59,405 nt of DNA, filler included, from Stramenopiles sp. TOSAG23-3 (GCA_900128585.1; 8 parts of 8 records of this genome joined end to end with filler, not necessarily neighbours in it); one strand, 5' to 3'. Positions 1-54,025 are shown, counted from the first letter of the whole stretch. A program made the numbers and translations. Notes: generated by a model not told the origin, from the sequence alone.

Positions 1-2
1 TT

Positions 3-1433
3 TCTGACCAGAGCGGGAAAGTCCTTCTAAACTCACTTGCTTTTTCCCAAGAATGCGCAGATGCATGCAAAAAAATGACTAACGAAAAAAACCGGGAATG
101 CGTTTATGGGTCCCAGATATTCTTGAAACGACCGAGTAAACTCACCTGCAATATAGTTGACACGGCAACAAACAAAGATCTTTTCAACAAACAAACCTTT
201 GGCGAGGAATGCAAAACACAGTGTAATGGATTGGCACAGTATAAATTCCGAGATTGTAGCTGGGGGTCGACCAAATTGAGAAGATATACAAGGCCAGAGC
301 TAAACCTAGAAGTATGTAAAATTGATGACAAAGACGGCAAGATCCTTTTCAAGGAGAAAATTGATGGTCCAGAATGTGTTAGATGGTGCAAGGCGCTGTC
401 CAAACACCCTTCCCGACAGTGCGCCTACGGTTCTAAAGTGATACTGAAGAGGGCAGTGAAAAATATGTGCAAGATCGATGACAAAGATGGCACTGTCCTA
501 TTGAGTACAAATTTGGATGCACACGAGTGTGCTGCGAAATGCGAAGGTATGAGCAAGCACCCTTTCCGCCAATGCATTTTTGGCTCCTTAGTAATTCAAA
601 AACGGGCAACTTTGGCTCCCCAGTGGTGCCATATTGATGACGAGCAACATAAGACATTATATTCTAAGACAGTATTGGCTGATGCGTGTTTCAGACAATG
701 CAATGCACTGAAGGCACATCCATACCGAGAGTGCATATTCGGGTCGAAATTTATCCTGAAGAGGGCAAAACTGCAAGTGTGTAAAATCACGGACCGCAAC
801 GGCAAGCAACTCTTTAGTGCTACAGTTACCAATACGGTGTGTGAAAGGCAGTGTAAAGATCAGCAAAAAACATGGAAACATGTCAAGTGCGTCTACGGGG
901 CGCAAACATTTTTGAAATTGCCAGACAAAGAAACCCTGTGCCAAATCCATGAGAAGGAGGGCGGAAAAATTCTTTCTAGTAAGGTCATGTACATTGGTGA
1001 CGACTGTGTCAAAGAATGCGATTCTCTAGGAAGCCACCCCGACAGAATCTGTCGGTATGGATCAATAACAATACGGCAAAAAATTATAACTAAAAGAACA
1101 GTCTGGGTTCAGAAAATTCGCGAATGCCTTATTAAGAGTAAAAGCGGTACTCTTTACCAACGCAACACGTACTCTGCTCAGTGCGTTCAAGAATGCAAAA
1201 ATAGATACGCTCAACAACAGTTCGGCCATTCCCTCAGTTGTACATTTGGCAGTGAAAATGTCCTCACGACTACTGTGTACCAGGTTACCACAGTAAAACG
1301 ATTTGATTGTGGGTGCTATTTGGCACGGTACAGTGACCTTAGGGCTGCTTTTGGTAGCGATTGTAATAGGGCACTTGATCATTGGACCAATCATGGACAT
1401 TCGGAGAAACGGAACCCGAGTTGTATCCCCTAA
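3..1433 (+). CDS. Cys-rich tandem-repeat protein, 5'-truncated; about 50-aa repeats plus a C-terminal 'YLARYSDL..AFG..HW..HG..E.R' module
   Basis: The frame is open from base 3 (SDQSGKVLLNSLAFSQECADACKKM...). The unit CxIxDxxGxxL...CxxxC...HPxRxCx(Y/F)GS recurs about 7-8 times. Confidence 0.75.
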   Translation, partial: SDQSGKVLLNSLAFSQECADACKKMTNEKNRECVYGSQIFLKRPSKLTCNIVDTATNKDLFNKQTFGEECKTQCNGLAQYKFRDCSWGSTKLRRYTRPELNLEVCKIDDKDGKILFKEKIDGPECVRWCKALSKHPSRQCAYGSKVILKRAVKNMCKIDDKDGTVLLSTNLDAHECAAKCEGMSKHPFRQCIFGSLVIQKRATLAPQWCHIDDEQHKTLYSKTVLADACFRQCNALKAHPYRECIFGSKFILKRAKLQVCKITDRNGKQLFSATVTNTVCERQCKDQQKTWKHVKCVYGAQTFLKLPDKETLCQIHEKEGGKILSSKVMYIGDDCVKECDSLGSHPDRICRYGSITIRQKIITKRTVWVQKIRECLIKSKSGTLYQRNTYSAQCVQECKNRYAQQQFGHSLSCTFGSENVLTTTVYQVTTVKRFDCGCYLARYSDLRAAFGSDCNRALDHWTNHGHSEKRNPSCIP

Positions 1434-1610
1434 CCCGTTTGCACAGGGTGTTCTGTTTTTAATTTTTGAGAAATAAGAATTTTTATTTGTCTATATTGTG
1501 TTTAGTAATAACATAGTACAGGAAGGAGGGGGTGATATTTTACCGGAGGTATTCGTATATAGGTAATTCCTTGAAGTATACAAATTATATACTTAAGCGT
1601 TACAAATTTG

Positions 1611-1673
1611 TGCGATTGTAATGCTGTGTTGATTATATCAACAACAAAAAATTTGCGATTGTAATGCTGTGTT
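1611..1673 (+). repeat. 20-bp direct repeat TGCGATTGTAATGCTGTGTT (2 copies), containing the ATGCTGTGT motif
   Basis: Identical copies at 1611-1630 and 1654-1673. Confidence 0.85.
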
Positions 1674-1720
1674 TATTATTTGCTTTGTGAAATCGTCCTC
1701 CTCCTCCGTTCAATATCTTT

Positions 1721-2199
1721 GGCGCAGAATTGAAAAATGGTAAAAACTTTTTGGTAATTATTTGAAGCAAAGAGATCTTTATGAATAAAGGATACTTTTT
1801 TTTAATTTAAAGGGTCAAAACTGGTTTGAGATGCATAAAATTATGCCTGTACGCTTGATTTTTTATTACAAACAAAGGAACAAGTGTTTGTGTGGGTAGC
1901 GTTTGGTCTAAATCGTCCATTTCACACAAAATTGTCCCTACGAACCGTAATTCCAAGTCATTAGAGGGCAAACAATTTATAAACGTTCGTTGGCGGTCAC
2001 ACATGGTAAGCGGGACGATTGCCTGATCTAAACTTATGCATTTAAGCATCCCCCTTGCTTTTGTTTATCGTTCTAGGACGGAACGCTTCCATACTTTGAA
2101 AATCGAGTTGGATTTTTTTTCGCGCCACGGACACCGAACACTTTGTTGAACAGGTGTATATCAAAGCCTTTTACTTTTAAAAAAACAACGACGGTCGTC
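1721..2199 (+). repeat. Dispersed ~480-bp conserved non-coding element, copy 1
   Basis: Colinear with 32110-32590 (+) and 46545-47024 (-). Shares the 42-bp block CTTCCATACTTTGAAAATCGAGTYGGATTTTTTTTCGCGCCA at 2086-2127. Confidence 0.92.
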
Positions 2200-2768
2200 T
2201 TTTCTATTTTTTTTAGAAAATGGTATTTTTGTCATTTTTTGTTGTAAGTTTGTGTTGAAATAAATAATTTCTTTCATTTTTACACCGAAAAGAAATGTTA
2301 ATTTATTTTAAGAGATGCTGTGTTGATGTAACATACCGATTGCTAAAACAAAAAAAAAGAAACAAAAAAATTGCAAAAGAACAATTGTTGTTGGAACATT
2401 GAAACAAAGTTGGTTCTTTTTTTTAGTGCTGTGTATATGTATTTTACTTTTACCAAAATATATTATTGCATTTTATATAATATTATCAACAACATTGGCC
2501 AGCAGCAGCGCAGCATTTTACTTACCTACCGGTACTTTTTTTGTTTGTGGTGGCTTATTATTCCTTTATCCATCCCTGGTACCTTCCGCCCGACACACAG
2601 ACCACAGATCACGTAACAAATGTTGGAAAATAGATGTGTAATGTCATACAGACAGCTCCTTGACGATTACAGATGATGTATTCATTGAATTAAACGGCAG
2701 AACAGGGAGTTACACTGACTTTAAAAAGTTAGAAACAAGCGATCAATCAAAAGTTCATACCTTCAGTG

Positions 2769-3626
2769 ATGGCAGACGATAGACTTTTGTTGAGTGATAG
2801 CATCTCAAAGCACTACGACGAACGGTCTGGCTCAGTGTATGTGCAGAAAAAGCTTTCAATTTTTGGACCGATTGTTGGCCACTACAGCGTTGAAGTAGAT
2901 GGCGATCTGTACGATTTGAATGATCATTACTCAAAGCCAATAAAATTTGGAAAATTTATTGTCCGTTCGCCAGTTGAAGCAGCAATAAACGTCATTGCGT
3001 TCAGCACCCTTGTTGTGTTGACAATTGTGGCACTCCTAAACGACCCAGAAAGCGTAGATTATTGGACTCTCCCATTCAAACTGTTACACTTATTTTTCCA
3101 CAGCATAGTCCACATTGTCCCCAATTGGTCAAAAGAGGATGGGATGGACCACAAAAAGTGTTTGAGAATTATATGTGGGATAGTGTTTGGCATATCCAGG
3201 TATGTTGTTATATTGATATATTTCTGGAGGATCCATTGGAGCTTCTTCGTTGGATTGCTCGTGCTTTTCGGGCTCACAGTAAAACTAAGGTTCCTTGGTG
3301 AATTGATTAAAACTGCTGTTGCATATTCAGTGGTATGTGTAGTCATGTGTCGTGGCGAATGCTCCGGTCTGTGCAGCGTTTGCTCGCTTGGAGCTTTGCT
3401 TCAGCTTGGCGCCTCGGGATCGTTTTACTTTGTTGGTCAGTGCAAAGGACATGTGTACAAACCATGGACGAGAGACACCGATCGAAAATGGATTGCTTAT
3501 CATGTAGTTTCAGACATTGGGAATGCATTGTGGATCATCGGAAGTGCCTACGATCCCAGCTCGCCCGTCCCTTTGGCATTTAATGAATATGGTAGCCAAG
3601 GTTTTCCTCTTTGTTGGTGGCCATGA
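2769..3626 (+). CDS. Hypothetical multi-pass membrane protein
   Basis: 285-aa ORF with several hydrophobic helices; no family recognised. Confidence 0.55.
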   Translation: MADDRLLLSDSISKHYDERSGSVYVQKKLSIFGPIVGHYSVEVDGDLYDLNDHYSKPIKFGKFIVRSPVEAAINVIAFSTLVVLTIVALLNDPESVDYWTLPFKLLHLFFHSIVHIVPNWSKEDGMDHKKCLRIICGIVFGISRYVVILIYFWRIHWSFFVGLLVLFGLTVKLRFLGELIKTAVAYSVVCVVMCRGECSGLCSVCSLGALLQLGASGSFYFVGQCKGHVYKPWTRDTDRKWIAYHVVSDIGNALWIIGSAYDPSSPVPLAFNEYGSQGFPLCWWP

Positions 3627-4337
3627 TTACAAAGTATACAGAATTTCCTGTTTTCTTCTTTTCGTTGTTGTTCTTCGAACAACCTTCTTTTTTTTTCGAA
3701 AAAAAAAGGATTTTAGGGGAGGAGGAGAGGAAGAAGTATTGTATTAAAATATGATAATTATTTATTATTATTATTTTGTATTTAAGACTAATAATAAAAT
3801 ACCGTACTACCAGCAGGTACTAAGATTTTTTTTAAATCTCCTCAGCAATTTGATGATGAAGGCGTGTTGTTATATAACGTTGTTGTAACAGACAGGTAAA
3901 AAGAACTGGTATTATATTCTGTTATATAGAATATTTTCCGAATTGGTTCTTCCGTATCTCTGTGGTGTTTTTTTTGTTTCTTTTTTTTGTTTCAATGTTG
4001 GTTTACTTTCATGTTTCACTGGACGCTGTGAGAGTACCGGTAGCGGTTATACCAAGGTATTATTATTATTATTTTTTTTTTAAATTCTTCTTCTTCTACA
4101 AGTATAATAATATTCATCACAATTTTGTCTTGTTGAAGTGACAATTTGTAATATACGTTTTTATTATAATAGTTTATGTAATTCGTTCTTCCGTAAACCG
4201 TCATCTATTTTCATTTTGATTGTTTTGTTTTAGGCAAAGAAATTGTAAGTTCACGATAGTTGAGTTTTGTTAAGTCCCTCGCTAATTTTCCAAGTTCTTC
4301 CCTTTACCGTAGAATGATTTTGTGCAAGTAGCTGGAA

Positions 4338-4652
4338 ATGAATTGTTGTCGTAGTAGTAGTAGAAGGGTTTCTCCGGAAGCTGGGGTCGCCCCTGGGCTT
4401 GCAATGGGCGTCAAAGAACTGAAAACAGAAGGGGATAGAATGGCGAGGGAGATAGTTATATCCCACTTCAAAACTGTCTTAAAAGAAAACCCCAACGCGA
4501 CGTTGGACATGGCCATTTTGAGCTTTGAAAATGCCGGACCAGAATACGAAAATAATTTGACCGAATTCGCCAAAACGAGAATGAGGACACCAGAAATGTA
4601 CAGAGCAAGTTATGAAACATTCTTTATCACGGCCAAAGAGACGTTGGAATAA
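4338..4652 (+). CDS. Small hypothetical protein
   Basis: 104-aa ORF forming a GC-richer island in AT-rich DNA. Confidence 0.45.
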   Translation: MNCCRSSSRRVSPEAGVAPGLAMGVKELKTEGDRMAREIVISHFKTVLKENPNATLDMAILSFENAGPEYENNLTEFAKTRMRTPEMYRASYETFFITAKETLE

Positions 4653-4717
4653 AAACCAAAAAAACGTTATGTGTATTAATTAATTGTATCACTTTGAAAA
4701 TATATTTTATCGTCGGT

Positions 4718-7368
4718 TTACATATATTTTAAACTCTCCGAGGTAGACCGAAACCCACTGGCGCTTTGCTGCGAGACCCAAAGTTCGATGTCTTGCGGTT
4801 TGGGTGGTGTGGACGCACAACCTTGGTATACAATGACGTGCAATTGCTTCAGCACGGAACCCGCCCGCTGATTCGTCCGCAAGAAGTGCTCTAAATAATT
4901 TTCCAAATTGCTCGACGGTGGGAAAACGCTCAACGTTATGTAGAGAAGCAGCCAGCCTTTCTCCACGGACTCGCCTGAAGGGTTGTTGGTTATTTGTTTT
5001 ATTATCTGAAGAAACAATTCATCTCGCAGCACTGGGTGAAAATACGCGGTTTGGAGGGCCTCTGCGGCCAAAGTCATCGGGTACGTGTAATGACGATCTC
5101 CCATAAATCCCATGACATGCTTAAACATGCGAATGCTTACAATATTTTCTCGGTCGTCCAGTCTTGTCAAAGAGCCATTTATGGGCAAGGGGGAAAAAGT
5201 AAGAAAGTCTTCCGGTTGCCCGTCCTTTAAATTCTGGAAATTGTAGAGGCTATAGTGATCGGCGGTCCGAAATTCGCGAAAATGCAAGGCCTTTATCTGA
5301 ATCGTAATGTCTGCGATGGCGTCCACGTCTTCGCTTTCGACGGCTAGCCTCAGCTTTAATTGAAGCAGCTGAGGAAACGGCAAAGACAGGATTTCTTTCA
5401 TTCGAGCCGCCAGGCGCAAAGAAACCCCATACCCTGCGGCTTGCTTGAGAACTTGCTGCATCAAAATTACATCCAGTTTCATCACGGCCGTTTCTGATTT
5501 CTCTCTCAGGGCGTCGCAATCTGCTAGCCGCTCCGCAACTTTCTGTGCAATCGATGACGTCTCGTATCCTAGCTTGGTGGCCTGCTCCAGGGCAAATCGC
5601 ATTCGTAAATGATTGGTGGAAAGGGAGCTGGAAAGGTCATCGTGAGATTTTTGTAACTTCACCAGCAACGCCTTGGAATGAATTACAACTGACGCAATAT
5701 CCATGTCTGCCAGTGAGTCCAGCCGCAAAAAATCTGCTTGCTCGACTAGGTACGTCAATTTTGCTATATCTTTTGTAGACATGGCCCCGATTAAACCCAA
5801 AGTTACGTCTCGTACATCGGTGTGCCATTGGGCATACACCCTGACGCTCTCAATTTCATCGGCCGCAAAGGGGCTAGCTTCTACTTCGTCGATTTGCTCC
5901 ATCGTGGATATGACATCGGCCCAATTGCCATCCATCAAGGCTTTGCGCAATTGGATTAAATACTTTGCCGTTATCATCAGCTGGTGGCCTTCACCTGCCC
6001 GGACTCCAGCTTTTTGACCTCTTTCCAGAGCAACCTCAAGACCCGATGTTGTGATAGTGCTGACGTTGACATGAGCGCCCTCAAATGTTGGTCTGCCCAA
6101 CACCAGCGCCTGGCGCAAGTCTCGGACAGCATCGCGAATGGACAGCTCTGATATAATTGCATTTATCTCTGACTCTACAATCTCCGCATCGTCCACCCCT
6201 AAATAGTCCTTCTCTTCGTCCGTCAAAGCACCACATGCTTTTACACGAATTGAAAATTCTGTGATAATTTCCCATTTTCCAAAAAGAAGAGCATCTCGCA
6301 GAGCGAGTATCTTTTCTGCAACAGAACAGACATTTTTTAATTCAACTGTGCACCGCTGCAATTCGTGCGCGCATTTTATACTTGACCTTAGCATTTCAAC
6401 TTCAACGTTGGATGTATCGAGCGCCCCTGGCTCCCCATCTCCACCTCCAACCCGAAGTGCATCACGTAACTTTTCAGTATTCTGGCGATTTTCGGCCAGT
6501 TCACGAGTTATTTTGATTTCTTCCTCAATAAACTTCGCGTTGGCTGTCCCCACGCACGACACGCCTACAGCATCAAGAGCTTTTTGTTGGCTGTCAAAGT
6601 CACGATCCAAAATAGCTTTCCGTAACCTTCTCACAGCAACAGCTGTTTTTTCCAAAGACAATATTTCTAGAGAATCGCATGTCATTGCCCTGACGTATCT
6701 AATTGCAGCATCTAAGTCATCCAAATGCACGGTGGAAACGGAGGCGGCAATCAGATCTCCGCTCAACCCGCCTGAAGAGAGTGCGTTGGTTAGTTTCTCT
6801 TTCGCCGTAATCTCTAGCAGCTCGTTTCGTATCTGCAAAACTTCTGGCTGTGTTTTTTCGGGCAAAAGATGTACAGACACTCCGGTCAGGCTCTGCCCAA
6901 CGCTTGACCAGTTTTTGTCAGCAACATGTTTCCGTAGATTAAGAATAAATTTTGCTGAATTTAAAAGCCTGCCCGAAGATATTGATTTGCTGCCTATTTC
7001 TTCTGCAAGAAGAATCGCCTCTTGCAGCCCTTCAATGCAAGATGTACTTGGATCCAACGCTGCATCAAGAGCTCGAGAAACTTTTCTATCATCAATTTCT
7101 AATTTTAAAAGTCCAATTTCAGCTTTTGCAGACGGGGCTATGGTAACTGTATCATTCGGGTCAACACTTAGCAATCGGGCCTCGACACTCAACCAATCAT
7201 CGTGCAAAACATCCCCCCGAACCCCTCGCAAAACCTTTGCACAGTTTTGCAGTACTTGCGCTTTTTCTGTCTTACATTTCAGTCTGGCGCCTTCTGCTAT
7301 CGCAAGTACCAGAGCATCGGTAGATATGTCTGAAGTATTAATTTGTCCTACTTCTCCTCTAACCTTTC
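4718..7368 (-). CDS. MyTH4-domain protein (probably an unconventional myosin tail), 5'-truncated at the contig end
   Basis: C-terminal MyTH4 signature (FKHVMGFMGD...LRDELFLQIIKQITNNPS..S..KGW.LL....SVFPPS). The frame is open up to 7368. Confidence 0.8.
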
Positions 7369-7468
7369 NNNNNNNNNNNNNNNNNNNNNNNNNNNNNNNN
7401 NNNNNNNNNNNNTTAATTAATTAANNNNNNNNNNNNNNNNNNNNNNNNNNNNNNNNNNNNNNNNNNNN
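7369..7468. other. Artificial contig spacer N44-TTAATTAATTAA-N44 (also at 14837-14936, 22303-22402, 29765-29864, 37184-37283, 44596-44695, 52003-52102)
   Basis: The same 100-bp linker with stops in all six frames occurs seven times, and the flanking contig lengths decrease monotonically. Confidence 0.97.
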
Positions 7469-7470
7469 GA

Positions 7471-7746
7471 ATAAAACAAAAAAAGATATTCGAAGTACTG
7501 AAACAAGGTGCAAAGAAATATTATGGCTACGAATTTGTAAAAGTAGACCGCCCACCGGAACAAACGGATACAGAGGGATCGTGCACCTTAAACGCACTTT
7601 GCCGAGCGATCACGGCCGCGGAAGGAAACGTTACAAGGAAGGATCTAGAAGAATGGGTACCCGTCTTTGTCCAAATGCTGGTCAAACATTTTAGAGGTAC
7701 TGCCATGGAAGAAAGTATTGTAAAATCAAGACAATTAAAATTTTGA
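7471..7746 (+). CDS. 3' fragment of a hypothetical protein (possible CE-clan/Ulp1-like protease C-terminus)
   Basis: My translation: IKQKKIFEVLKQGAKKYYGYEFVKVDRPPEQTDTEGSCTLNALCRA...SRQLKF*. The Q-x6-C spacing resembles the Ulp1 oxyanion Gln/catalytic Cys motif. Confidence 0.45.
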   Translation: MKQKKIFEVLKQGAKKYYGYEFVKVDRPPEQTDTEGSCTLNALCRAITAAEGNVTRKDLEEWVPVFVQMLVKHFRGTAMEESIVKSRQLKF

Positions 7747-8052
7747 TAATTTAAGATTACCACCTGACCCACTGGTCAACGATCTTGATGTTTTCGCTGC
7801 CGATCGTTCTTTCAAAAAATTCTTCCACTTCGCTTTAAATTCCGGAAACTTACTCCCTACAAAGTCGCGTAGGAATTTTGCCCGTCGATCTATACTCGAA
7901 AATGCTTGTGACGTTTTCTCCGCTAGCCTTTTGGTAGTATTTTTGGTCAAATTACGATTTATTTCCATCTGACTCTCAAGTGCCTCTAGCTTTGCGTTTA
8001 GCCTCGCTATTTCAGCAGTATTGTTTTTCACGGACATGGGACCAGTGGACAT
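7735..8052 (-). CDS. Small coiled-coil hypothetical protein
   Basis: 105-aa ORF with a heptad-like N-terminal half (EIARLNAKLEALESQM). Confidence 0.55.
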   Translation of the reverse strand: MSTGPMSVKNNTAEIARLNAKLEALESQMEINRNLTKNTTKRLAEKTSQAFSSIDRRAKFLRDFVGSKFPEFKAKWKNFLKERSAAKTSRSLTSGSGGNLKLSKF

Positions 8053-8089
8053 TTCTTTAATACATGCACATATTAATAGGATAGAATTT

Positions 8090-8962
8090 TTAAATATGGT
8101 AAATATCTATGTATTCGCTCGCTCGACTGAATGAATACGCACAGGCAAATACGTACACATGCCACATAATGTGGGCGTTCAAATCGTCCTTCAGTTTATG
8201 GATAAACGATACGCTGCCGAATACAACCCCGACAATCACCCAAAAGCAAAACTTCGTTCGGTATTTTTTGACTCGTATACTTCCGCGATACAGTTGATAC
8301 AACGCGGAGACCACCGCGATTGTAATAAAGAACCAACACAGCAACAGGTCCAATTGCGCTTTCTTTTCGTACGCTATGTATAGAACAGCACCAAACAAGC
8401 TGGTAATACAGAAGTTTATCGCTAAATTGACAGACCATCTGCATCTCCATTCGCTAGTTTCTCGAGCCTGTCCGCGACAATTTTTGTACCACCAACCAAA
8501 TACGCCCAACTCTTGCTTGTAAGACGGTATCGTAGGCTTTACCTTAGGCAGCCACGACAAACAGTAGGAAATTATGGTCATTATCGAAAACACCAAGTCT
8601 CCACGTTCGTACGACACAAAACTACCCGGTAACCCTAACTTTAAGTCAGCGGTCCAGTGCCACACGATACTGAAATAGCAGGTGCTAAAGAGTAGGAATT
8701 TTAACCATAGTCCTTGGGCTTGCATCAATGGAAAGAACGCGAACAAGTTTGACATAATCACATGGAATTTGTTGACATTCGTGACATTTTCTTCGTCGTA
8801 CAAGAGGTCTATGCACAAAATATATGCGGTGTAAATGGCCGTAGAGAGAAAGAACACCGTGTCCATCTCTCCTTGGTCCTCGTCTTCGTCCAATAAACCG
8901 ATGGGATCGGGGAGTACCTTCGTATCCTTTATGGGGGATACCTTCATTTCGGTATACTTCAT
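8090..8962 (-). CDS. CREST-superfamily 7-TM protein, TMEM8/PGAP6/myomaker-like
   Basis: SNLFAFFP, FSIVWH (SxxxH), ERGDLVFS (conserved D) and HIMWH (HxxWH) occur in the TMEM8/DUF3522 order, with about 7 hydrophobic helices. Confidence 0.65.
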   Translation of the reverse strand: MKYTEMKVSPIKDTKVLPDPIGLLDEDEDQGEMDTVFFLSTAIYTAYILCIDLLYDEENVTNVNKFHVIMSNLFAFFPLMQAQGLWLKFLLFSTCYFSIVWHWTADLKLGLPGSFVSYERGDLVFSIMTIISYCLSWLPKVKPTIPSYKQELGVFGWWYKNCRGQARETSEWRCRWSVNLAINFCITSLFGAVLYIAYEKKAQLDLLLCWFFITIAVVSALYQLYRGSIRVKKYRTKFCFWVIVGVVFGSVSFIHKLKDDLNAHIMWHVYVFACAYSFSRASEYIDIYHI

Positions 8963-9034
8963 TAATATATATACTGGTATTATAATTTTACTTTAATAAA
9001 TCATCTCTTCGCTAACCCTACTAGTAACTCTGTT

Positions 9035-9262
9035 ATCCCATTTGGTACATCCCAACATCCCATTTGGTACGGATCTACAGCCACAATTCCCAATGGATCC
9101 CAATGGGATTCGTCTGGACCGTCTGGACCGTCTGGATCAGTGTCGTTCGACCAGATCCCAATGGGATCCCAATGGGATTGATACATCATTAAACTAAAAC
9201 AAAAACGAAAACTAAAACGAAAACTAAAACTAAAACAAAAACGAAAACTAAAACGAAAACAC
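9035..9262. repeat. Complex repeat cluster: ATCCCA boxes, palindromic ATCCCAATGGGAT, (CGTCTGGAC)x3 and an (AAAACN)n tandem
   Basis: ATCCCATTTGGTAC at 9035 and 9057; ATCCCAATGGGAT at 9097, 9155 and 9166; 9-mer x3 at 9111-9137; AAAAC(G/T/A) hexamers at about 9190-9262. Confidence 0.85.
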
Positions 9263-9278
9263 TTTGATTATTGAAAGA

Positions 9279-11081
9279 ATGACAAGCTTTAGCGATAAAC
9301 TAACCATCCTAGAACGCGTGCGTTCAACCTGTAAGTCCACACAGCTCACACTCCCACAGATTGTGGTTATTGGCGACCAAAGCAGTGGAAAATCATCCCT
9401 ACTTTCCGAACTATCGGGCATTCCATTTCCAGAAGCCGCGAAAATATGCACGAAATGTCCCATTGTGGTTCACACCAGCAAGGCAACAGTCGGTCCTAAC
9501 ATTTACACCATTGGGGAGACAACCTTTAAACACAGCGAATTGACCAATGAAATAACGCGTATCCAAACCGACATGGTGAAAGACACGAAAATATCTACCA
9601 CGCCAATCCTAATCCACGCTAAGGGCGTAGACATGGAAGATTTGGTCCTCGTAGATTTGCCCGGTATTATCCACACAAACGGCGGCAAAGATGATGTGCT
9701 TCAACTGATAAAGCTTTTTATTCAACCAGAACAAAGTCTCATTCTTACCATAACAGAAGCGACACGAGACGAAGAAACAGCACAAGCGTTGCAGTTAGCA
9801 GAGGATGCAGACCCATCTGGAGAGCGCACACTACGCATCTTAAGCAAGTTCGATAAGTTTGATAGTCTGGCGAAGCGTGCCGAAGCTATTTCTATCATAC
9901 AAGAAGGGTCCGGGGAATTAAGGCCACACGCTGTCATCTGTCGCCCAAACGGTAATGCGTACGAATCCTCGAATGAACTGTTGCATTTGGATGGAGTCGA
10001 TGATCAAGGCATCCAGACATTAAAAGGCCGCCTTCCAACACTGTTGAGTAAGCGAATTGACGTTAATCTCCCAGAGTTAAAGAAGCAGGTCAGGGAAAGG
10101 TTGAATCATGCGAATGAACGTATTTCCGAATTGGGAAAGAACGAACTCAATACTACACAGATAAAAATACGTCTTCAAAAAGTTATCAACGACGTTGAAT
10201 TTGATTTGTGCGGGTTCACACGCACGGCGGCACAGACATTGCGCAAACACGGTATGTATGGACCGTCCAAGATTAAGAATCAGATGTTTGTTGAAGAAAT
10301 GGTCGATGACCTGTACCGACATGATCTATTTACACCGCCCTTTTTTCAGGGGAAAGAAACCTTCAACAAATGCCTACAGCAAATTGTAGGAGTATGGACT
10401 CCCATTTTACAAATGTTAACAAAGAACATACGCAAAACCTTGAAGGAATTCTTACCAGACTTCAAGGGGATTTCCAAAGCGTTAAAAGCGAACATCATCG
10501 ACAGTTGGGAGACACATTGTCGCACCATGATGGACGAGCTCGAAGCACGAATGAAGGCGGCATTGAAAAAGGAAACAAGACACTCTACGATGAACCATTA
10601 CCTGACCGCAAAGTATGAGGATTTTTTTCAATATTCATCCACTGTAAAAGAAACCATCTTATCGGCCATAAACTTAGAAACCTTTGCACACGTATATTCA
10701 AAGGACAATTCGAGTTCGTCGAGATGGAAACCGATACCAGTGGCTGCGCAAAAGGATGCATTGTCTGACATCATCGACAAAGCATTGGAGTCGTACTCAT
10801 CACAGTTCGACAAATCCAATCTCGAAGAACAGCGGAAAGAAATGATCGTTGCCACCGTAAAGGCAAACACCACGGTGTCGTTGAAAACGTTGACGGACAA
10901 CATGATGGCGGCCGTGAAAGAGGTGATCTATGACGGAAAAGAGCATTGGATCAATGTTGTGCTTCTATTCATTGAAGGGGCATCCGAAGATGAATTTACG
11001 AAGTCCGAGCGAAAAAAGTACCTCAAAATTCAAAAAGAAATGGAAGAGTGTGCTACGCTACTGAATGATATTAAAGTTTAA
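9279..11081 (+). CDS. Dynamin-superfamily GTPase (Mx/Vps1-like)
   Basis: G1 LPQIVVIGDQSSGKSS, G2 ICTKCP, G3 LVDLPG and G4-like SKFD, followed by a helical stalk containing TMNHY. First ATG at 9279. Confidence 0.9.
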   Translation: MTSFSDKLTILERVRSTCKSTQLTLPQIVVIGDQSSGKSSLLSELSGIPFPEAAKICTKCPIVVHTSKATVGPNIYTIGETTFKHSELTNEITRIQTDMVKDTKISTTPILIHAKGVDMEDLVLVDLPGIIHTNGGKDDVLQLIKLFIQPEQSLILTITEATRDEETAQALQLAEDADPSGERTLRILSKFDKFDSLAKRAEAISIIQEGSGELRPHAVICRPNGNAYESSNELLHLDGVDDQGIQTLKGRLPTLLSKRIDVNLPELKKQVRERLNHANERISELGKNELNTTQIKIRLQKVINDVEFDLCGFTRTAAQTLRKHGMYGPSKIKNQMFVEEMVDDLYRHDLFTPPFFQGKETFNKCLQQIVGVWTPILQMLTKNIRKTLKEFLPDFKGISKALKANIIDSWETHCRTMMDELEARMKAALKKETRHSTMNHYLTAKYEDFFQYSSTVKETILSAINLETFAHVYSKDNSSSSRWKPIPVAAQKDALSDIIDKALESYSSQFDKSNLEEQRKEMIVATVKANTTVSLKTLTDNMMAAVKEVIYDGKEHWINVVLLFIEGASEDEFTKSERKKYLKIQKEMEECATLLNDIKV

Positions 11082-11114
11082 ATCCTACTATATAAGTATT
11101 TTTAGACCTTCAAA

Positions 11115-11987
11115 ATGGAATGCAAAGCCCATCAAAACCATTGCGATGCGCAAAATAGCTCCTCTTACGTTTTAAGCTGTTTAGATGAAGACTTAATCTG
11201 TTACCACCACTACGATATTGACGGTGGACGAAAAATGATGATATGTGAATCGTACACGCCCATAGTAGCTACAACCACAACCACTTCCGCCACGTCAACC
11301 ACGTCCACCAGCCATACGCCAACAAGTACACTGGTAACAACACAGGAACCAACCACGGTCGTCTCAACTTCAAATGTGCGAACATCCACAACAACAATGC
11401 TACCAAATACAACGACTCCGAATCCAAGTCTAAGAGCTCTGACAAATACGTCGAGTGCCAAACAAATACAAAAGAAGTATGTATTAAAGCAATGGAATAG
11501 AACAAATCTAGCAGCATCTCCTCCAGCAAAACCCGAATATATATATGTTGATAATAATTCCGACGTCGCAATATGGGCATGTATTATCGTATTGATGCTA
11601 TTGCAGCTCTACCAAATTCTCAGAAACAAGACATGCACTAGACGTCCACGAAAAATAAGCAATCCACCGCCGGTCAACAATCAACAATTTCAAAGAAACT
11701 CATGGTCCAATATGCCACCGGTACAGCATATGAGAAGGGAACAGAAAAGAAGAGAACGGAAGACGAAATTAAGAGAGATTGTAAATGGTAACGGAGTTCC
11801 AAAGCCTCCACCCACCAGCGAATCGTTGATGAAGAAACAAAATGACGCACCACCATTACCGTCAAGGCCGGCACCAAAACACTCGCCACCAAGTGCAGAA
11901 GATGGTCTGAAGACGTTGAACGCGCTTCGTGGAACTGCAAAGTTAAAGCAGCAAATGCGAAGATTACACGAATCGCAAAAAACGTAA
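11115..11987 (+). CDS. Single-pass membrane glycoprotein-like protein (Cys-rich head, Thr/Ser mucin stalk, TM, Pro-rich tail)
   Basis: TTTTTSATSTTST stalk, TM VAIWACIIVLMLLQLYQIL, and a PPLPSRP motif in the tail. Confidence 0.65.
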   Translation: MECKAHQNHCDAQNSSSYVLSCLDEDLICYHHYDIDGGRKMMICESYTPIVATTTTTSATSTTSTSHTPTSTLVTTQEPTTVVSTSNVRTSTTTMLPNTTTPNPSLRALTNTSSAKQIQKKYVLKQWNRTNLAASPPAKPEYIYVDNNSDVAIWACIIVLMLLQLYQILRNKTCTRRPRKISNPPPVNNQQFQRNSWSNMPPVQHMRREQKRRERKTKLREIVNGNGVPKPPPTSESLMKKQNDAPPLPSRPAPKHSPPSAEDGLKTLNALRGTAKLKQQMRRLHESQKT

Positions 11988-12013
11988 TATATATAATACA
12001 ATAGTAATTGATA

Positions 12014-13261
12014 ATGAACGCATTAGTTGTTAGGGACGACATACAGGATTTTATCAAATCTGAACTGTTTACCGGAAGAGTACCATACCCTCCAACACCA
12101 TACAAAAAATGGTTTGGTTTCCTCTACGTTGCAAAGGCAGAAGGAGACGAGAACACTTGGAAAGTTGGGATGACAAATTATATTAAAGATAGAACCAAAG
12201 CGTTGGCGAGAGAAAGAGTAAAACCTCCCGTGTACGTGTGGTCGTGTCCGAATGTACAAGTAATAGAAACAGCAGTCAAACAAGTATTGGTCCATTTTAC
12301 AGAAGCAGGCGGCGACAAAAAAGCCGAGGACAAAGTGGAAGCTTTGGCAGACGAAGACAATGGGGCAGCAACCAAATACAGGTCTGAAATATTTTCCTTG
12401 CCATTCCCGGTTTTGATCCGTATGATACGACTCATTGTCCTGTACGTTTACACTCGAGAACAATGGATCACGTCAAATTTCCATTACCAAACTCTGCACA
12501 AATACTTTCAATTAAAACCAGAGGGAATACGGTATGTCGATGATGATGATGAAAAGCGAACGGCAGCGGGTACAAAAGTCATAGATACTCGAGTAACGGT
12601 AAGATATCCTACGCTGGATGAAGTGAAAATAAAATGGCGGCTGAAACAGATTGGTGCATTAAAAACAGACGGTGCGAAACAATTAGGAGAACTAAAAAAA
12701 GCGTTAAGGGCCGAGGATGGGTTATTAGAAGGCGAGGATGTTCCCGTTAGTAGAGTTGAACTGCTAAGGCGTTTGGCAGAAATTGTATATCGACGAAATT
12801 TTGACAAAAATGAAAGAGAGCAAAAAAGGTCATTTAAAGCTGTCACAGGTAAGGATTTACCAGTGCCTACTGTAGATAAATTAAGAGACTACGCCAAAAG
12901 TCTATACATAACGGATCCAGAATGGTACGGCAAAACGTATCAGGGCATCGTACGAAGTAAATCGAGCAACAATAGGTATAAAGTTTATTTTTACATAGAC
13001 AATAAAGCAACGACAGCATTTGTTTATCCAGAGTTCATTATCCCGGACAACTCATTCGATCTAGAAGCTGTGTACAAGGAATGTAACATCGATTGGATAG
13101 AGAAGCTTATTCCACAGGACGAAGACATTCAACGCTTGGGCCTTATTGACTTTGGTGAATTTAATTTTGGTGAAGAAGAGAGTGGTGCCGATGGTACGAC
13201 CGTTATCACATCCAGTGACGATGAGGATGAGTATATGGAGGAGACTAAACTCAAGTTTTAG
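12014..13261 (+). CDS. T5orf172/MUG113 (GIY-YIG-like) domain protein with an acidic C-terminus
   Basis: GFLYVAK...WKVGMT....R...L...IETAVKQVL...SEIF pattern. Confidence 0.65.
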   Translation: MNALVVRDDIQDFIKSELFTGRVPYPPTPYKKWFGFLYVAKAEGDENTWKVGMTNYIKDRTKALARERVKPPVYVWSCPNVQVIETAVKQVLVHFTEAGGDKKAEDKVEALADEDNGAATKYRSEIFSLPFPVLIRMIRLIVLYVYTREQWITSNFHYQTLHKYFQLKPEGIRYVDDDDEKRTAAGTKVIDTRVTVRYPTLDEVKIKWRLKQIGALKTDGAKQLGELKKALRAEDGLLEGEDVPVSRVELLRRLAEIVYRRNFDKNEREQKRSFKAVTGKDLPVPTVDKLRDYAKSLYITDPEWYGKTYQGIVRSKSSNNRYKVYFYIDNKATTAFVYPEFIIPDNSFDLEAVYKECNIDWIEKLIPQDEDIQRLGLIDFGEFNFGEEESGADGTTVITSSDDEDEYMEETKLKF

Positions 13262-14000
13262 CTCCTCGTGCTAGCACAATAAGTTCTGTACTAGACTGAA
13301 CTGGCGGGTCTTCGTAAAGTGGCAAATGGTCATTGTATTGCTCGAGTGTCCACTGCGTAGAATAATAACCAATGGTACCCTCGATATCCAACAGCGACAT
13401 CTTACTGTGCGGGTGATGTATTTTTGTCTTCTCTAAATTCATACGTAAAACCATCATACTAGGAAGTATTGTAGCGTCGAATTTGTTTAGGACCGACTTA
13501 AAGTGTGTTTTATAACTATCTCTCCAAGTACCGTACTCTTCTTCAAACCGCTGTTCCATCTCTTTATCTTTCTTTCGCTTTTTGAATTTCATTTGTGTGA
13601 GCGCAATGTGTCCTAATGCGGTTCTAAGCATGATCACAGTATTATGATCCCCGTTTTGGAACGCTTGGTACATTACATCCGTAAAGTAGCGATAATTTTG
13701 TCTAATTTGAAATTTATTTGCGAATCCACTATCTTTGCAAAGAATCGCGTAAATCACGTTAAAGATGGAATTGTCGATGTACTTCGGTATACTGTTTCTC
13801 TTTATGGGGTCAGAGTGGTAGCCGAACAATTGTCTGGAAGCTTTTTTACACTTTGAAGTCATTTCGTCGAGTTTATCATCGTACTCCGTTCTGAAGAGAC
13901 AAGTTAACATTGCCCGCACTTTATCCATTTGGGAAGGTGGTGCTGGGAAAGCCATATTGAACAAACGATAGCCGTCCGAGGAGAGTCGTCTTCTTGGCAT
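13251..14000 (-). CDS. RasGEF (CDC25)-like domain protein, divergent
   Basis: VIYAIL...YRYFTDVMYQAFQNGDHNTVIMLRTALGHIALTQMK...SYKTHFKSVL...ILPSM follows the CDC25 pattern (EIL..FI.IA..C..L.NFN...I..AL....I.RLK / YR..L...IP). Probable ATG at 14000. Confidence 0.55.
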   Translation of the reverse strand: MPRRRLSSDGYRLFNMAFPAPPSQMDKVRAMLTCLFRTEYDDKLDEMTSKCKKASRQLFGYHSDPIKRNSIPKYIDNSIFNVIYAILCKDSGFANKFQIRQNYRYFTDVMYQAFQNGDHNTVIMLRTALGHIALTQMKFKKRKKDKEMEQRFEEEYGTWRDSYKTHFKSVLNKFDATILPSMMVLRMNLEKTKIHHPHSKMSLLDIEGTIGYYSTQWTLEQYNDHLPLYEDPPVQSSTELIVLARGAKT

Positions 14001-14033
14001 TTTGGAATATAAAAGGACGCTTTTATAGTAGAA
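14001..14033. promoter_or_regulatory. 33-bp bidirectional promoter with back-to-back TATAAAA boxes
   Basis: TATAAAA on + at 14008-14014 and on - at 14021-14027, each about 20-27 bp upstream of the divergent ATGs at 14034 and 14000. Confidence 0.6.
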
Positions 14034-14609
14034 ATGCAAATCGACGTAAGTTTTGCTCACCCCGTCGGCCCTTATTCCAACCCAATTAATCACCTGATAC
14101 CTACGTATTGCCATGTTGAGATATCCTATCATACGACTGCAATGTCCTTTAAACAGCAGCTGGTACAACACATGGAATCACAATCGAAAAAGTATTTGAT
14201 AGAACTAAAAAGAAGGTTAGATAAAATTAATGGCAAGATAATTGTGTGTTTTTACATTAATTTTGGAGAAGTAGTTTCATGTAGGTTCTTAAGCCCGTTG
14301 ATTGAAAACGCTTACTACCGCCCACCCGAAAAGCCCGTGTACGACGTTCTGCCTTTAAAATGTACACTTGATCAAATGAACAAATTGACCGAGTTTTATT
14401 TGAAAAATTTAGGAAAGCCGTACGACTATGTGCGGGCAATGCTGTGTTTATTCCCATACACCCTCCGAGATTGCAACTATGAAAAATACTTTTGTAGTCA
14501 GTTGGTGATACGATCCTTAGTGGAAGCCGGATTGTGTGAAAATCACCCGAGCCCAAATCATCTCACACCGCTTGAAGTTTACAATTATTTGAAAAAAATC
14601 CCCTGCTAA
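14034..14609 (+). CDS. Permuted papain-like (NlpC/P60, YaeF/YiiX C92-type) amidase/peptidase
   Basis: Motif order YCHVEI (His) ... LGKPYDY ... YFCSQLV (Cys) ... LTP. Confidence 0.8.
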   Translation: MQIDVSFAHPVGPYSNPINHLIPTYCHVEISYHTTAMSFKQQLVQHMESQSKKYLIELKRRLDKINGKIIVCFYINFGEVVSCRFLSPLIENAYYRPPEKPVYDVLPLKCTLDQMNKLTEFYLKNLGKPYDYVRAMLCLFPYTLRDCNYEKYFCSQLVIRSLVEAGLCENHPSPNHLTPLEVYNYLKKIPC

Positions 14610-14936
14610 TTTTAACCTAACCCAAACCCTAATTGCTTTTTAATGCTATTGTACACTAAGGGGGTTTTACTGTTACGGACCCCCTAATTTTTAGCAGGTG
14701 TCTATTATAGATGGTGTGTAGGTCATTTTTTGTTTCCTTGCCTGTGTCCCATTCTTTAAAATACCTATCAAAAAACATTTTGTACTTGTAAAGGTCGCTA
14801 AAGTACCGATTTTTTTTTGAAAAAAAGTCCATTGTANNNNNNNNNNNNNNNNNNNNNNNNNNNNNNNNNNNNNNNNNNNNTTAATTAATTAANNNNNNNN
14901 NNNNNNNNNNNNNNNNNNNNNNNNNNNNNNNNNNNN

Positions 14937-15200
14937 GAAAATAAAGAAGAAGTAGAAAGAAGAAGAAAAGGAAGAAAGAAGAAGAAGAAAGAAGAAGAAG
15001 AAGAAGAAAGAAAAGAAGAAAAAATAAAAGAATAAGATAGAAGAAAGAAGAAGGAAGAAGAAAAGGAAGAAGAAGAAAGAAGAAGAAGAAGAAGAAAGAA
15101 GAAGAAGAAGAAGAAAAGAAGAAGGAGAAGAGAAAGAAGAAGAAAGAAGAAGAAAAGGAAGAAGAAGAAGAAAGAAAGAAAAGAAGAAGGAGAAGAGAAA
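14937..15200. repeat. GAA-rich microsatellite (also at 15735-16050, 25300-25460 and 29625-29764)
   Basis: Imperfect (GAA)n/(TTC)n tracts, frequently at contig ends. Confidence 0.95.
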
Positions 15201-53997: not shown

Positions 53998-54025
53998 GAC
54001 ACAGCATCCTTCGCGATGCTGTGTC
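53998..54025. promoter_or_regulatory. Perfect 11-bp inverted repeat of the ACACAGCAT motif between divergent genes
   Basis: GACACAGCATC-CTTCGC-GATGCTGTGTC. Confidence 0.6.

Follow-up and report, generated by a model that had tools for sequence, protein, structure and literature searches.

Members of Mirusviricota are defined by genes for an HK97 capsid, a portal and a triplex; the MCP carries a small tower, and there are two triplex proteins, 1 and 2 (PMC10132985). Terminase defines their virion module, and their informational module, with RNA polymerase subunits, PolB, TFIIS and topoisomerase II, is related to that of the nucleocytoviruses (PMC10132985). Gaia et al. 2023 give TBP in 59% of mirusviruses against 0% of nucleocytoviruses; the corresponding shares for M16 are 60% and 2% (PMC10132985). 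For Nucleocytoviricota, Sheikh et al. 2023 describe 123 non-redundant viral dynamin-related proteins (DRPs), belonging to groups D, MidX, B1, B3 and C (PMC10280142).

The window analyzed here, 59,405 nucleotides with filler included, from Stramenopiles sp. TOSAG23-3 (GCA_900128585.1), consists of eight whole contigs ordered by length, from 7368 down to 7303 bp, with N spacers between them. The second piece, positions 7469-14836, is a complete contig of about 7.4 kb whose features are listed in Table 1. We interpret it as an accessory-genome fragment from a large dsDNA virus of marine protists, most likely one of the Mirusviricota, that was assembled with the protist's contigs. A sequence-only reading had described about nine tightly packed, intronless ORFs, unlike the other seven contigs. 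No introns are seen and the coding fraction is 0.909, but the ORFs number eight (seven complete, plus the last 91 codons of an end-cut gene), and the seven junctions between them comprise two overlaps (12 and 11 nt), four spacers of 26-37 nt and one repeat-rich spacer of 316 nt. The contrast with the other pieces holds in part. The studied contig has the flattest local GC of the eight (sd 0.035 vs 0.067-0.127), and 4 of its 7 ORFs have a TATAWA box upstream, compared with 2 of the 29 ORFs on the other pieces. A Pfam scan of pieces 1 and 8 found MyTH4 on piece 1 and CTNNBL (2e-108) and Rad52 on piece 8, plainly cellular genes. However, pieces 1 and 8 are likewise ORF-dense, and piece 1 has a similar GC3.

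Table 1. Features of the studied contig, in window coordinates.
Feature	Position	Strand	Basis
End-cut gene, last 91 codons of 403-aa gene; candidate clan-CE cysteine protease	7471..7746	+	L001 homologue
105-aa protein, no assigned function	7735..8052	-	ORF call
7-TM protein, CREST/TMEM8c(Myomaker)-like putative membrane hydrolase, 290 aa	8090..8962	-	Motif and fold
Divergent spacer, 316 nt, short tandem repeats	8963..9278		Repeat analysis
Dynamin-related GTPase (DRP), 600 aa	9279..11081	+	Pfam Dynamin_N, G motifs
Mucin-like single-pass membrane protein, 290 aa	11115..11987	+	Composition, hydropathy
T5orf172-domain protein, 415 aa	12014..13261	+	Pfam T5orf172
Predicted stand-alone Cdc25-homology (RasGEF catalytic) domain protein, 249 aa	13251..14000	-	Predicted fold
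Divergent promoter region, 33 nt	14001..14033		Two facing TATAAAA boxes
Permuted papain-like (NlpC/P60, C92-like) putative amidase, 191 aa	14034..14609	+	Sub-threshold Pfam, invariant residues
Non-coding tail, 227 nt, dispersed repeat	14610..14836		Several left flanks in metagenome runs

The stretch recurs in nature. A contig from another metagenome, L001, is collinear with it at 86.7-98.5% nucleotide identity, and 20 of the 24 runs listed, from 13 studies, hold all or part of it. Two independent marine metagenomes contain strain-level variants (88-99% identity) that span the stretch in full. The divergent spacer is repetitive, with an 18-nt unit present 3.9 times at 9191-9260, and contig variants have a 506-nt insertion within it at 8992/8996; depth in the bin 9191-9436 spikes to 114-1676 in three DNA runs, so the spacer repeat is present elsewhere too. 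Contigs from a marine metatranscriptome library match five genes, with two stretches free of mismatches; one RNA-library contig matches window positions 8128-8472, in the 7-TM gene, with zero mismatches. These matches are a hint of expression; the library may contain DNA.

IMG/VR contigs bearing homologues of the window proteins span 84-179 kb. The 133.8-kb contig G002 encodes homologues of four of the seven complete proteins, at 42% identity for TM290, 36.5% for the N-terminal 185 residues of the T5orf172 protein (an ORF in the equivalent position), 56% for the RasGEF-fold protein and 54% for the C92-like protein, of which it has a second paralogue at 28%. The last three genes keep the window order, T5orf172, RasGEF(-), C92(+), and three of four tested L001 ORFs from beyond the left end of the window's contig are also present, at 59-71% identity. 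G003 (83.6 kb) carries the RasGEF/C92 pair and a patatin trio, together with homologues of genes that neighbor the 83-86%-identical dynamins of L002 and L003; the head-to-head RasGEF/C92 pair is kept in L001, G002 and G003. G004 and G005 each have a TM290 homologue. Because a collinear near-identical contig and strain variants occur in independent marine metagenomes, and homologues in conserved order occur on IMG/VR contigs, a viral origin of the contig is supported.

Neither the studied contig nor L001 carries a hallmark gene, and the assignment to a phylum rests on homologues of 36-71% identity on other contigs. On those contigs, a terminase large subunit, unspliced and 606-634 aa long, just exceeds the Terminase_6N cut-off of 22 bits in G002, G003 and G005 (24.3, 25.6 and 23.5 bits); all five matches in a PDB profile search are terminases, and the alignment with T4 gp17 pairs both Walker A and Walker B. 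An RPB1 of 1497 aa, topoisomerase II and a Pox_A22-type resolvase are also found, and PolB occurs on G004 and G005. G002 encodes an M16 peptidase (7.2e-33) whose G003 homologue is 58% identical. A two-repeat TBP scores 86.5 bits in G001 and 71.6 bits in G002, and is absent from the G003 fragment. Searches for Capsid_NCLDV, run without a positive control, returned none on the five contigs G001-G005, all of them fragments (CheckV 8-50%), and A32 and VLTF3 were found on neither of the two fragments G001 and G002. Since terminase, TBP, M16, topoisomerase II, RPB1 and PolB are present and the NCLDV capsid, A32 and VLTF3 were not found, we favor Mirusviricota over Nucleocytoviricota; of the giant virus or mirusvirus fragment first proposed, the metagenome copies and IMG/VR kinship bear out the general claim and these genes favor its second option.

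The lineage has a common promoter design. Of the 269 ORFs on the studied contig, L001-L004, G002 and G003, 197 have TATAWA in the 50 nt upstream, compared with 203 of 2949 random windows; 177 of the 323 motif starts fall at 26-30 nt ahead of the ATG. In the divergent promoter region of Table 1, the two facing boxes form a near-palindrome. In our interpretation a short promoter precedes each gene, with a TATA box some 26-30 nt ahead of the start codon; this box may be read by the virus-encoded TBP and viral RNA polymerase found in relatives. This fixed-distance box, common to the IMG/VR contigs and scarce in the other pieces, argues against the view that this is ordinary cellular DNA, of the protist or of a compact contaminating eukaryote, with a superficial resemblance to a virus. 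Such DNA would fit the density of the other window contigs, whose stop-free cover is 0.70-0.86, and the fact that dynamin, RasGEF and TMEM8-like proteins are eukaryotic families. Yet the homologues and their local gene order lie on contigs with terminase, RPB1, PolB and TBP, and the nearest organism-named cellular dynamin, from a diatom, is just 29% identical and outranked by about 90 metagenome-only rows. We regard a cellular origin as very improbable.

The dynamin call is confirmed: Dynamin_N matches at E 2.7e-27, and G1 (GDQSSGKS), G3 (DLPG) and G4 (SKFD) are all present. Dynamin_M reaches 22.6 bits, under its cut-off of 28.5, and Pfam gives no GED match. In the tree, the window protein falls in a virus-rich clade that is separate from both Mx and DRP4C, a single diatom protein being nested in the wider group, and its own clade is sister to a clade on low-GC contigs that have the octamer AAAATTGA upstream of many ORFs. 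We take this octamer to be the mimivirid early promoter, which would make the sister-clade contigs mimivirid-type. No dynamin was found on G001-G005, so the dynamin-bearing contigs are tied to the terminase-bearing ones solely through other shared genes.

This sister clade is among the evidence that the fragment could come from a nucleocytovirus, for example one of the Imitervirales, rather than a mirusvirus. The DRPs documented in that phylum, the giant-virus GEFs that make up the top five BFVD structural matches of the RasGEF-fold model, the Nucleocytoviricota label on the Atlas neighbors of the 403-aa protein, and Erv1, dUTPase, RNR and S74 fibre in neighboring loci all point the same way; RasGEF, patatin, dynamin and T5orf172 genes are found in nucleocytoviruses too (PMC10280142). 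Against this stand terminase, TBP and M16 on the related contigs, the capsid, A32 and VLTF3 results given above, an RPB1 whose 120 best matches listed include no viral protein with an organism name, and the octamer AAAATTGA, which precedes none of the 61 ORFs in L001-L005. A nucleocytovirus source is unlikely in our judgment, and assignment to Mirusviricota is preferred.

Of the calls made in the sequence-only reading, the RasGEF-like one is confirmed by predicted fold, and the TMEM8/CREST-like one has support from fold and motif; Pfam matches neither protein. For the first, the true start is M45 of a 293-aa ORF, the Met at which the L001 homologue begins, with a TATAAAA box 27 nt upstream. 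HMMER found 126 representative homologues. No Pfam RasGEF match was obtained at E<=0.1 and no PDB match with a 78-sequence profile, but the AF2 model (pLDDT 92, pTM 0.85) has the RalGPS1a CDC25 domain as its best Foldseek match (8.5e-5). VIA gives Z 16.1 to RasGRP2 and RasGRF1 (rmsd 3.2-3.3 over 196-204 residues), and RasGEFs are 50 of the 50 among the matches listed. We file the product as a RasGEF fold with putative exchange activity.

The real start of the 7-TM protein is probably the second ATG, at 8947. The CREST signature is a 7-TM core with conserved SxxxH, D and HxxxH, and S98xxxH102, D122 and H264xxxH268 are invariant in six of six homologues. Among 48,161 chains the AF2 model (pLDDT 66, pTM 0.65) has Ciona and mouse Myomaker as its top two matches (Z 15.6 and 15.4; rmsd 3.2 and 3.0 over 187 and 177 residues), a small margin above the best GPCR at Z 14.3; the highest Foldseek TM-score, 0.63, is also to Myomaker.

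The remaining genes vary in how firmly they can be named. The mucin-like protein, with no Pfam match, is borne out by composition: a Cys-rich head, an S/T-rich stalk (60% S/T at residues 61-90), a single hydrophobic segment near residue 151 (TM near 151-169), and a Pro- and basic-rich tail. It is 96.6% identical in L001, and its gene has a TATATAA box 27 nt before the ATG. The T5orf172 domain is likewise confirmed, at residues 35-94 (25.2 bits vs a cut-off of 20). The N-terminus of this protein looks GIY-YIG-related and nuclease-like, and the C-terminal half is hypervariable. Identity to the L001 ortholog is 60%, compared with 87-99% for its neighbors; in one variant, positions 12534-13259 are replaced by 646 other letters, and all 10 homologues found come from metagenomes. 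The C92 amidase call stands as a weak one. The Peptidase_C92 match (E 0.0048, 17.4 bits) is under the cut-off of 27, but C26-H27, C154-S155 and G127-K128-x-Y130-D131-Y132 (GKPYDY in the window) are invariant in four of four homologues, and H27 followed by C154 would be the permuted His-then-Cys catalytic pair; the product may be a C92-like amidase. The Ulp1-like fragment shares 98.9% identity with the C-terminal part of L001:2584-3795, which encodes the full-length 403-aa protein. By eye that protein has the catalytic order H..D..Q..C, but it has no Pfam match at E<=0.01, and C48 clusters appear in the Atlas search only at ranks 13 (0.89) and 27 (0.88). It is a candidate clan-CE (Ulp1/adenain-like) cysteine protease, as a lead only. 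The 105-aa ORF, whose 3' end overlaps the preceding gene by 12 nt, is 97% identical in L001 and matches no Pfam family at its cut-off.

The genes are predicted to encode a dynamin-related GTPase, a RasGEF domain in minimal form, a 7-TM putative lipid hydrolase resembling Myomaker/CREST, a mucin-like membrane glycoprotein, an amidase of papain-like type and a clan-CE-like protease, as well as a T5orf172 nuclease-like product of a fast-evolving gene. We propose that in the infected cell they act on host membranes and small-GTPase signaling, with the dynamin remodeling or severing membranes and the GEF activating Ras/Rab-type GTPases, either the host's own or those that related viruses encode. 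From these predicted functions, the contig genes probably reshape host membranes and may manipulate the host.

The viral DNA might be an endogenous element in the protist chromosome or a persistent episome rather than a co-sampled infecting or ingested virus. It shares an assembly with cellular contigs, and its tetranucleotide profile and overall GC are close to those of piece 1 (r = 0.87; GC 0.414 vs 0.415); integrated and episomal mirusviruses are known (PMC12768974). The tail is a dispersed repeat: in contigs of runs X1, X3 and X4, several different left flanks meet the stretch at 14593-14596, and depth rises to 54-201. Among fetched loci the tail is present only in L001. The run data consist of contigs. 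However, no host-like flank is seen, the ORFs are intact and their promoters conserved, contig variants occur in metagenomes of those 13 studies, and the GC3 of its ORFs is 0.38-0.54 compared with 0.53-0.80 for most ORFs of pieces 3-7 (one at 0.46). We give integration or an episome a low probability, though these observations are compatible with it.

A joint reading, which we offer tentatively and at somewhat less than even confidence, combines one rigid TATA/TBP promoter design, a dynamin clade exchanged between phyla and a candidate natural host. Nearly all genes of the lineage would be driven by a box 26-30 nt upstream, implying almost leaderless mRNAs; if the virus's own TBP reads this rigid promoter, this would account for the presence of TBP as a core gene specific to mirusviruses. 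The virus-rich dynamin clade would be common to the mirusvirus lineage and mimivirid-type giant viruses. If this is true, presence in two very small runs labeled as a single organism would point to a rare candidate natural mirusvirus host. Among the papers listed in a literature search, none was found to mention dynamin, RasGEF or a TATA-box promoter in mirusviruses, and supplementary tables may list such genes.

Compared with described Mirusviricota, the relatives differ in that PDB sequence searches and Atlas, used without a reference profile, recognized no gene for an HK97-fold capsid, portal or triplex protein among candidate large G002 ORFs. They are alike in combining terminase, RPB1, PolB, topoisomerase II, TBP, M16 peptidase and A22-type resolvase with patatin, Ras/Arf GTPases, Erv1, dUTPase and SNF2, functions listed as mirusvirus core or shared (PMC10132985; PMC12768974). 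Marine origin, a GC of 40-45% (published range 25-72%) and an unspliced terminase close to the published alignment length of 609 aa agree as well (PMC10132985; PMC12768974). With no introns seen, the relatives show features described for the intron-poor marine mirusviruses of the provisional order Demutovirales (Medvedeva et al. 2025, PMC12768974). Like the DRPs of Nucleocytoviricota, the window DRP is virus-encoded with an intact G domain, and its clade resembles the largely viral group with few protist members of Sheikh et al.; the viral DRPs in that work are all classed as Nucleocytoviricota, whereas this one lies on mirusvirus-like contigs (PMC10280142). Neither a targeting peptide nor, in a hydropathy scan, a hydrophobic or TM window is seen in the window DRP, so MidX-type mitochondrial action is not implied. 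The RasGEF-fold protein differs from known RasGEFs in being only 249 aa long, without REM or regulatory domains, and in a sequence too divergent for Pfam or PDB profile search. It shares with Cdc25-homology domains (RalGPS1a, RasGRF1, RasGRP2, SOS1) and giant-virus GEFs (Klosneuvirus, Fadolivirus, Tupanvirus) a common fold over about 200 of its 249 residues, at Z 14-16 and rmsd 3.2-3.5. The 7-TM protein, in a model of moderate confidence, differs from Myomaker and CREST proteins by an acidic N-terminus and an additional helix there. Its best structural match is to Myomaker/TMEM8c, and it keeps the SxxxH, D and HxxxH positions of the CREST superfamily of 7-TM hydrolases (alkaline ceramidase, PAQR, Per1).

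The window consists of eight whole contigs sorted by length, from 7368 down to 7303 bp, joined by spacers of N44-TTAATTAATTAA-N44. On the second of these (contig 2), ORF calling with ATG starts and the standard code gives seven complete ORFs plus the last 91 codons of an eighth, truncated by the contig end, for a coding fraction of 0.909. Adjacent genes overlap by 11-12 nt or are separated by gaps of 26-37 nt, the exceptions being a repeat-rich divergent spacer of 316 nt 5' of the dynamin gene and a tail of 227 nt. The sequence-only reading had described about nine tightly packed ORFs, setting the contig apart from the other seven; the packing holds, but eight ORFs are counted. Contig 2 does have the flattest composition of the eight pieces (standard deviation of local GC 0.035, versus 0.067-0.127 in the others), but the others are also ORF-dense, and piece 1, the first contig, is close to it in GC and GC3 and resembles it in the tetranucleotide comparison that had been proposed as a check (r = 0.87). 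Compared against Pfam, pieces 1 and 8 both carry plainly cellular eukaryotic genes, the former encoding a MyTH4 protein and the latter CTNNBL (2e-108), Rad52 and a DUF676 esterase. GC3 is 0.38-0.54 in the ORFs of contig 2 and much higher, 0.53-0.80, in most ORFs of pieces 3-7. Rfam and tRNA scans across the whole window returned no matches.

Positions of features discussed in the text (window positions unless another sequence is named)
Feature	Sequence	Position	Strand
Contig 2	window	7469-14836	
ORF cut by contig end	window	7471-7746	+
7-TM ORF	window	8090-8962	-
Dynamin gene	window	9279-11081	+
T5orf172 gene	window	12014-13261	+
T5orf172 C-terminal half, replaced in variant	window	12534-13259	
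RasGEF gene	window	13251-14000	-
C92-like gene	window	14034-14609	+
Junction of alternative left flanks	window	14593-14596	
Repeat tail	window	14610-14836	
Piece 1	window	1-7368	
Pieces 3-7	window	14937-52002	
GAA/AAG microsatellite	window	14937-15200	
Piece 8	window	52103-59405	
MutS domain I ORF	L002	986-1330	
MutS domain I ORF	G003	80166-80504	
ORF with Peptidase_S74 domain	L003	12519-17549	
7-TM gene to terminase	G002	6037-10330	
Split PolB match (L118, L119)	G005	59073-61604	

The remaining pieces fall into two sets by composition. GC3 in pieces 1 and 8 is 0.39-0.56, with modest GC swings, and intergenic GC in pieces 3-7 is as low as 0.26; the assembly may contain two cellular genomes or two compositional compartments. 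Piece 3 opens with a long microsatellite rich in GAA/AAG. The tail of contig 2 is a dispersed repeat, at 4-15x the depth of the genes, to which several different left flanks are joined in contigs of three runs; a short CCCTAA-like run opens it, and it has a G5/C5 hairpin inside.

Two of the genes named in the sequence-only reading are confirmed directly by Pfam: the dynamin (Dynamin_N, 2.7e-27), which has G1, G3 and G4 motifs and lacks a hydrophobic segment, and the T5orf172 protein (25.2 bits, cut-off 20). The C92-like ORF scores below threshold (17.4 bits, cut-off 27), and His27, Cys154 and a G-K-x-Y-D-Y motif (GKPYDY in the window protein) are kept in all four homologues. The other ORFs of contig 2 match no Pfam family. 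The mucin-like transmembrane protein is as described, with 60% Ser/Thr in residues 61-90, a single TM segment and a tail rich in proline. What the contig end leaves of the cut ORF is the C-terminus of a 403-aa protein, in which an H..D..Q..C order, seen by eye and lacking statistical support, fits a clan-CE protease. One metagenome variant has 646 unrelated letters in place of the T5orf172 gene's C-terminal half, behavior like that of a mobile or diversifying cassette.

Two further assignments depend on predicted structures. The RasGEF ORF, called at 293 aa, truly starts at Met45 and encodes 249 aa: this is where the copy in L001, a collinear and nearly identical metagenome locus, begins, and 27 nt upstream of it is a TATAAAA box. 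A HMMER profile of three copies of 249-251 aa (from the window, L001 and the IMG/VR contig G002) found 126 representative homologues across all databases, while Pfam does not see the family and no PDB sequence matched. The AlphaFold2 model, built with 78 homologues aligned, has pLDDT 92 and pTM 0.85. Its top Foldseek matches are Cdc25-homology domains, RalGPS1a first at 8.5e-5, and VIA-align scores it at Z 16.1 against both RasGRP2 and RasGRF1, with RasGEFs making up 50 of 50 rows among the matches listed. The RasGEF-like label is correct at the level of the fold, to which sequence profiles are blind. For the 7-TM ORF, S98xxxH102, D122 and H264xxxH268 are kept in 6 of 6 homologues. A search of 48,161 chains, independent of Foldseek, placed Ciona and mouse Myomaker (TMEM8c) on top (Z 15.6 and 15.4, rmsd about 3), ahead of GPCRs (Z at most 14.3), and Myomaker again had the highest TM-score in Foldseek. 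The suggestion of a TMEM8/CREST-like protein is therefore supported but short of proof; the model is of moderate quality (pLDDT 66).

Larger relatives of contig 2 were sought in IMG/VR. Scans with the dynamin alone, a 35-sequence dynamin alignment, or the 7-TM protein alone found no relative. L001 carries 3.5 kb more than contig 2, including a patatin-like phospholipase, and this patatin led to five IMG/VR contigs; alignments of the RasGEF and 7-TM proteins led to further ones. In G002 (133.8 kb), the T5orf172 N-terminus, RasGEF and C92-like protein all have homologues, ordered and oriented as in the window; a homologue of the 7-TM protein and the patatin trio of L001 are present too. G003 (83.6 kb) has the patatin trio as well, together with the RasGEF/C92 pair. 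Dynamin_N has no match in the five related contigs G001-G005, and the dynamin-bearing contigs are tied to the virus group of G003 because it shares homologues of the genes flanking dynamin in L002, L003 and L004.

The related contigs encode a terminase large subunit of 606-634 aa, scoring above the Terminase_6N cut-off in G002, G003 and G005 and 86% identical between G002 and G003; in a PDB profile search all five matches were terminases, aligned across Walker A and B. Related IMG/VR records also encode PolB, topoisomerase II, M16 peptidase, SNF2 ATPases, an A22-type resolvase and a two-repeat TATA-binding protein (TBP). Ras/Rab/Arf-like GTPases are encoded on related contigs as well. Among the 120 best listed relatives of their RPB1 there is no organism-named virus, and eukaryotic RPB1 is 33-36% identical. 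By passages of Gaia et al. 2023 (PMC10132985) and Medvedeva et al. 2025 (PMC12768974), Mirusviricota are marked by TBP and M16 peptidase together with a terminase and an informational module like that of NCLDVs. The sequence-only reading had left open a giant virus or a mirusvirus; an origin in one of the two is supported, and the terminase, TBP and M16 peptidase of the related contigs favor the latter. Capsid_NCLDV, A32 and VLTF3 gave no match in the IMG/VR relatives searched, all of them fragments; the capsid search was run without a positive control. No HK97 capsid, portal or triplex gene was recognized among candidate ORFs; in G002, ORFs of 1131 and 676 aa gave nothing useful against PDB sequences and one of 640 aa nothing in Atlas. 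In 20 ORFs scanned directly around dynamin loci, no capsid or polymerase hallmark came up; in alignment-mode scans, which covered the best 25 of 53 families (59 ORFs) and 7 families (32 ORFs), a hallmark could be hidden. We consider contig 2, either co-sampled with the protist or integrated in its DNA, quite probably a mirusvirus fragment rather than one of a giant virus. A polinton-like virus or virophage was rejected, given the size of the related contigs (84-179 kb) and their polymerase and terminase genes.

Several features of these relatives deserve mention. A stand-alone ORF of 115 aa, matching MutS domain I and nothing else (4.3e-10), is conserved between L002 and G003 at 38% identity. 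The PolB match in G005 falls in two stretches inside one open frame of 1434 aa, which suggests an insertion such as an intein, and many relatives of the G002 RPB1 have intein/LAGLIDADG domains or are forms of about 1000 aa spanning about 70% of the query. Near the 86%-identical dynamin of L003 lies an ORF of 1676 aa with a C-terminal Peptidase_S74 (endosialidase chaperone) domain, probably a fiber or spike protein. In G002 and in G005 (locus L116), the 7-TM Myomaker-like gene sits two genes from the terminase, and the conserved ORF of 514-539 aa between them may be a virion-module gene. G005 (179,204 bp) has direct terminal repeats according to IMG/VR, yet a CheckV completeness of only 50%. 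Another locus, L115, is on a 372-kb IMG/VR contig.

The lineage shares a promoter motif. Over contig 2, L001-L004, G002 and G003, 197 of 269 ORFs have TATAWA in the 50 nt preceding them, compared to 203 of 2949 random 50-nt windows, and the motif starts 26-30 nt before the ATG in 177 of 323 cases. Upstream of ORFs in the other window pieces it is found in 2 of 29. The strict motif precedes 4 of the 7 ORFs on contig 2, and the spacing fits the 7-TM gene if translation starts at the second ATG. The RasGEF and C92-like genes point away from each other across a 33-nt divergent promoter at 14001-14033. The fixed TATA box and the viral TBP suggest that this lineage would use TBP-dependent promoters with very short leaders. 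A literature search found no paper linking mirusviruses to "TATA box", and passages from one of the papers matching "promoter" concern other viruses.

These genes are widespread in environmental sequence. About 90 metagenome-only rows outrank the first organism-named protein, from a diatom (29% identity), in a dynamin search, followed by Mx and DRP4C; members of the dynamin cluster occur on contigs up to 142 kb, with close relatives on contigs of 142 and 126 kb. Of 578 pattern matches in a scan of metagenome contigs, 507 were confirmed; 79 loci were retained. L001 is collinear with contig 2 at 86.7-98.5% nucleotide identity, its proteins 87-99% identical save the T5orf172 gene (60%), and L002 and L003 have only the dynamin in common with contig 2 (83-86%). 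The stretch is present, whole or in part, in 20 of 24 listed runs from 13 studies, two very small runs being flagged as a possible source, and contigs in two independent marine metagenomes span all of it as 88-99% variants. In run X1, a 10.2-kb contig reaches 8.4 kb past position 7469. Contigs from an RNA library (X16), in which DNA carry-over is possible, match five genes, two stretches without mismatch; gaps in this cover say nothing about gene silence.

Dynamins 35-38% identical to that of contig 2 occur at low-GC loci in which the octamer AAAATTGA, which we take to be the mimivirid early promoter, lies upstream of many ORFs (for example 5 of 10, 5 of 13 and 4 of 17); upstream of ORFs in L001-L005 it is found in 0 of 61. 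These contigs (L006-L013, L017, L020; 22-32% GC), with sister-clade dynamins, also encode FtsH, GDP-mannose dehydratase, TTL, SIR2 and RNR, and because of these genes and the octamer they are probably mimivirid-type giant viruses. The dynamin tree has 32 rows and is rooted at its midpoint only; two of its branches are long, and composition is biased in several rows. Left out were one near-duplicate and one partial copy (L011 and L012), as well as the weak or incomplete matches L026, L027 and all from L029 on. All six TATA-type dynamins group together (96/94), with seven of the eight AAAATTGA-type rows as their sister group (97/96). The remaining row, L020, falls in the wider clade, adjoining a group with the diatom protein, and Mx and DRP4C fall outside. 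Passages of Sheikh et al. 2023 (PMC10280142) give 123 viral DRPs, all from Nucleocytoviricota. We found no paper linking dynamins to mirusviruses (one review has both words, in unrelated passages), although the gene families in question may already be tabulated for mirusviruses in supplements to the three key papers, which lay outside that literature check.

Mirusviruses, abundant in the oceans, are described in passages of the literature as known almost solely from bins recovered from metagenomes, with a few episomes and a single integrant in a chromosome, so that little is known of their hosts and gene regulation. A fragment within a protist assembly offers a host candidate open to testing, and the fixed TATA box with a viral TBP a concrete promoter mechanism likewise open to testing. 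The dynamin, the minimal RasGEF and the Myomaker-like protein lengthen the list of membrane and signaling genes attributed to mirusviruses, with functions that would fit manipulation of host membranes and small-GTPase signaling. The sister relation of the dynamins to a clade on mimivirid-type contigs adds a clear example of genes shared by the two phyla to which large DNA viruses of eukaryotes belong. Among mirusviruses, Demutovirales are characterized in passages of PMC10132985 and PMC12768974 by an unspliced terminase, a retained RNA polymerase, marine occurrence and few introns; the relatives of contig 2 resemble them in their unspliced terminase, RNA polymerase, marine source and few introns.
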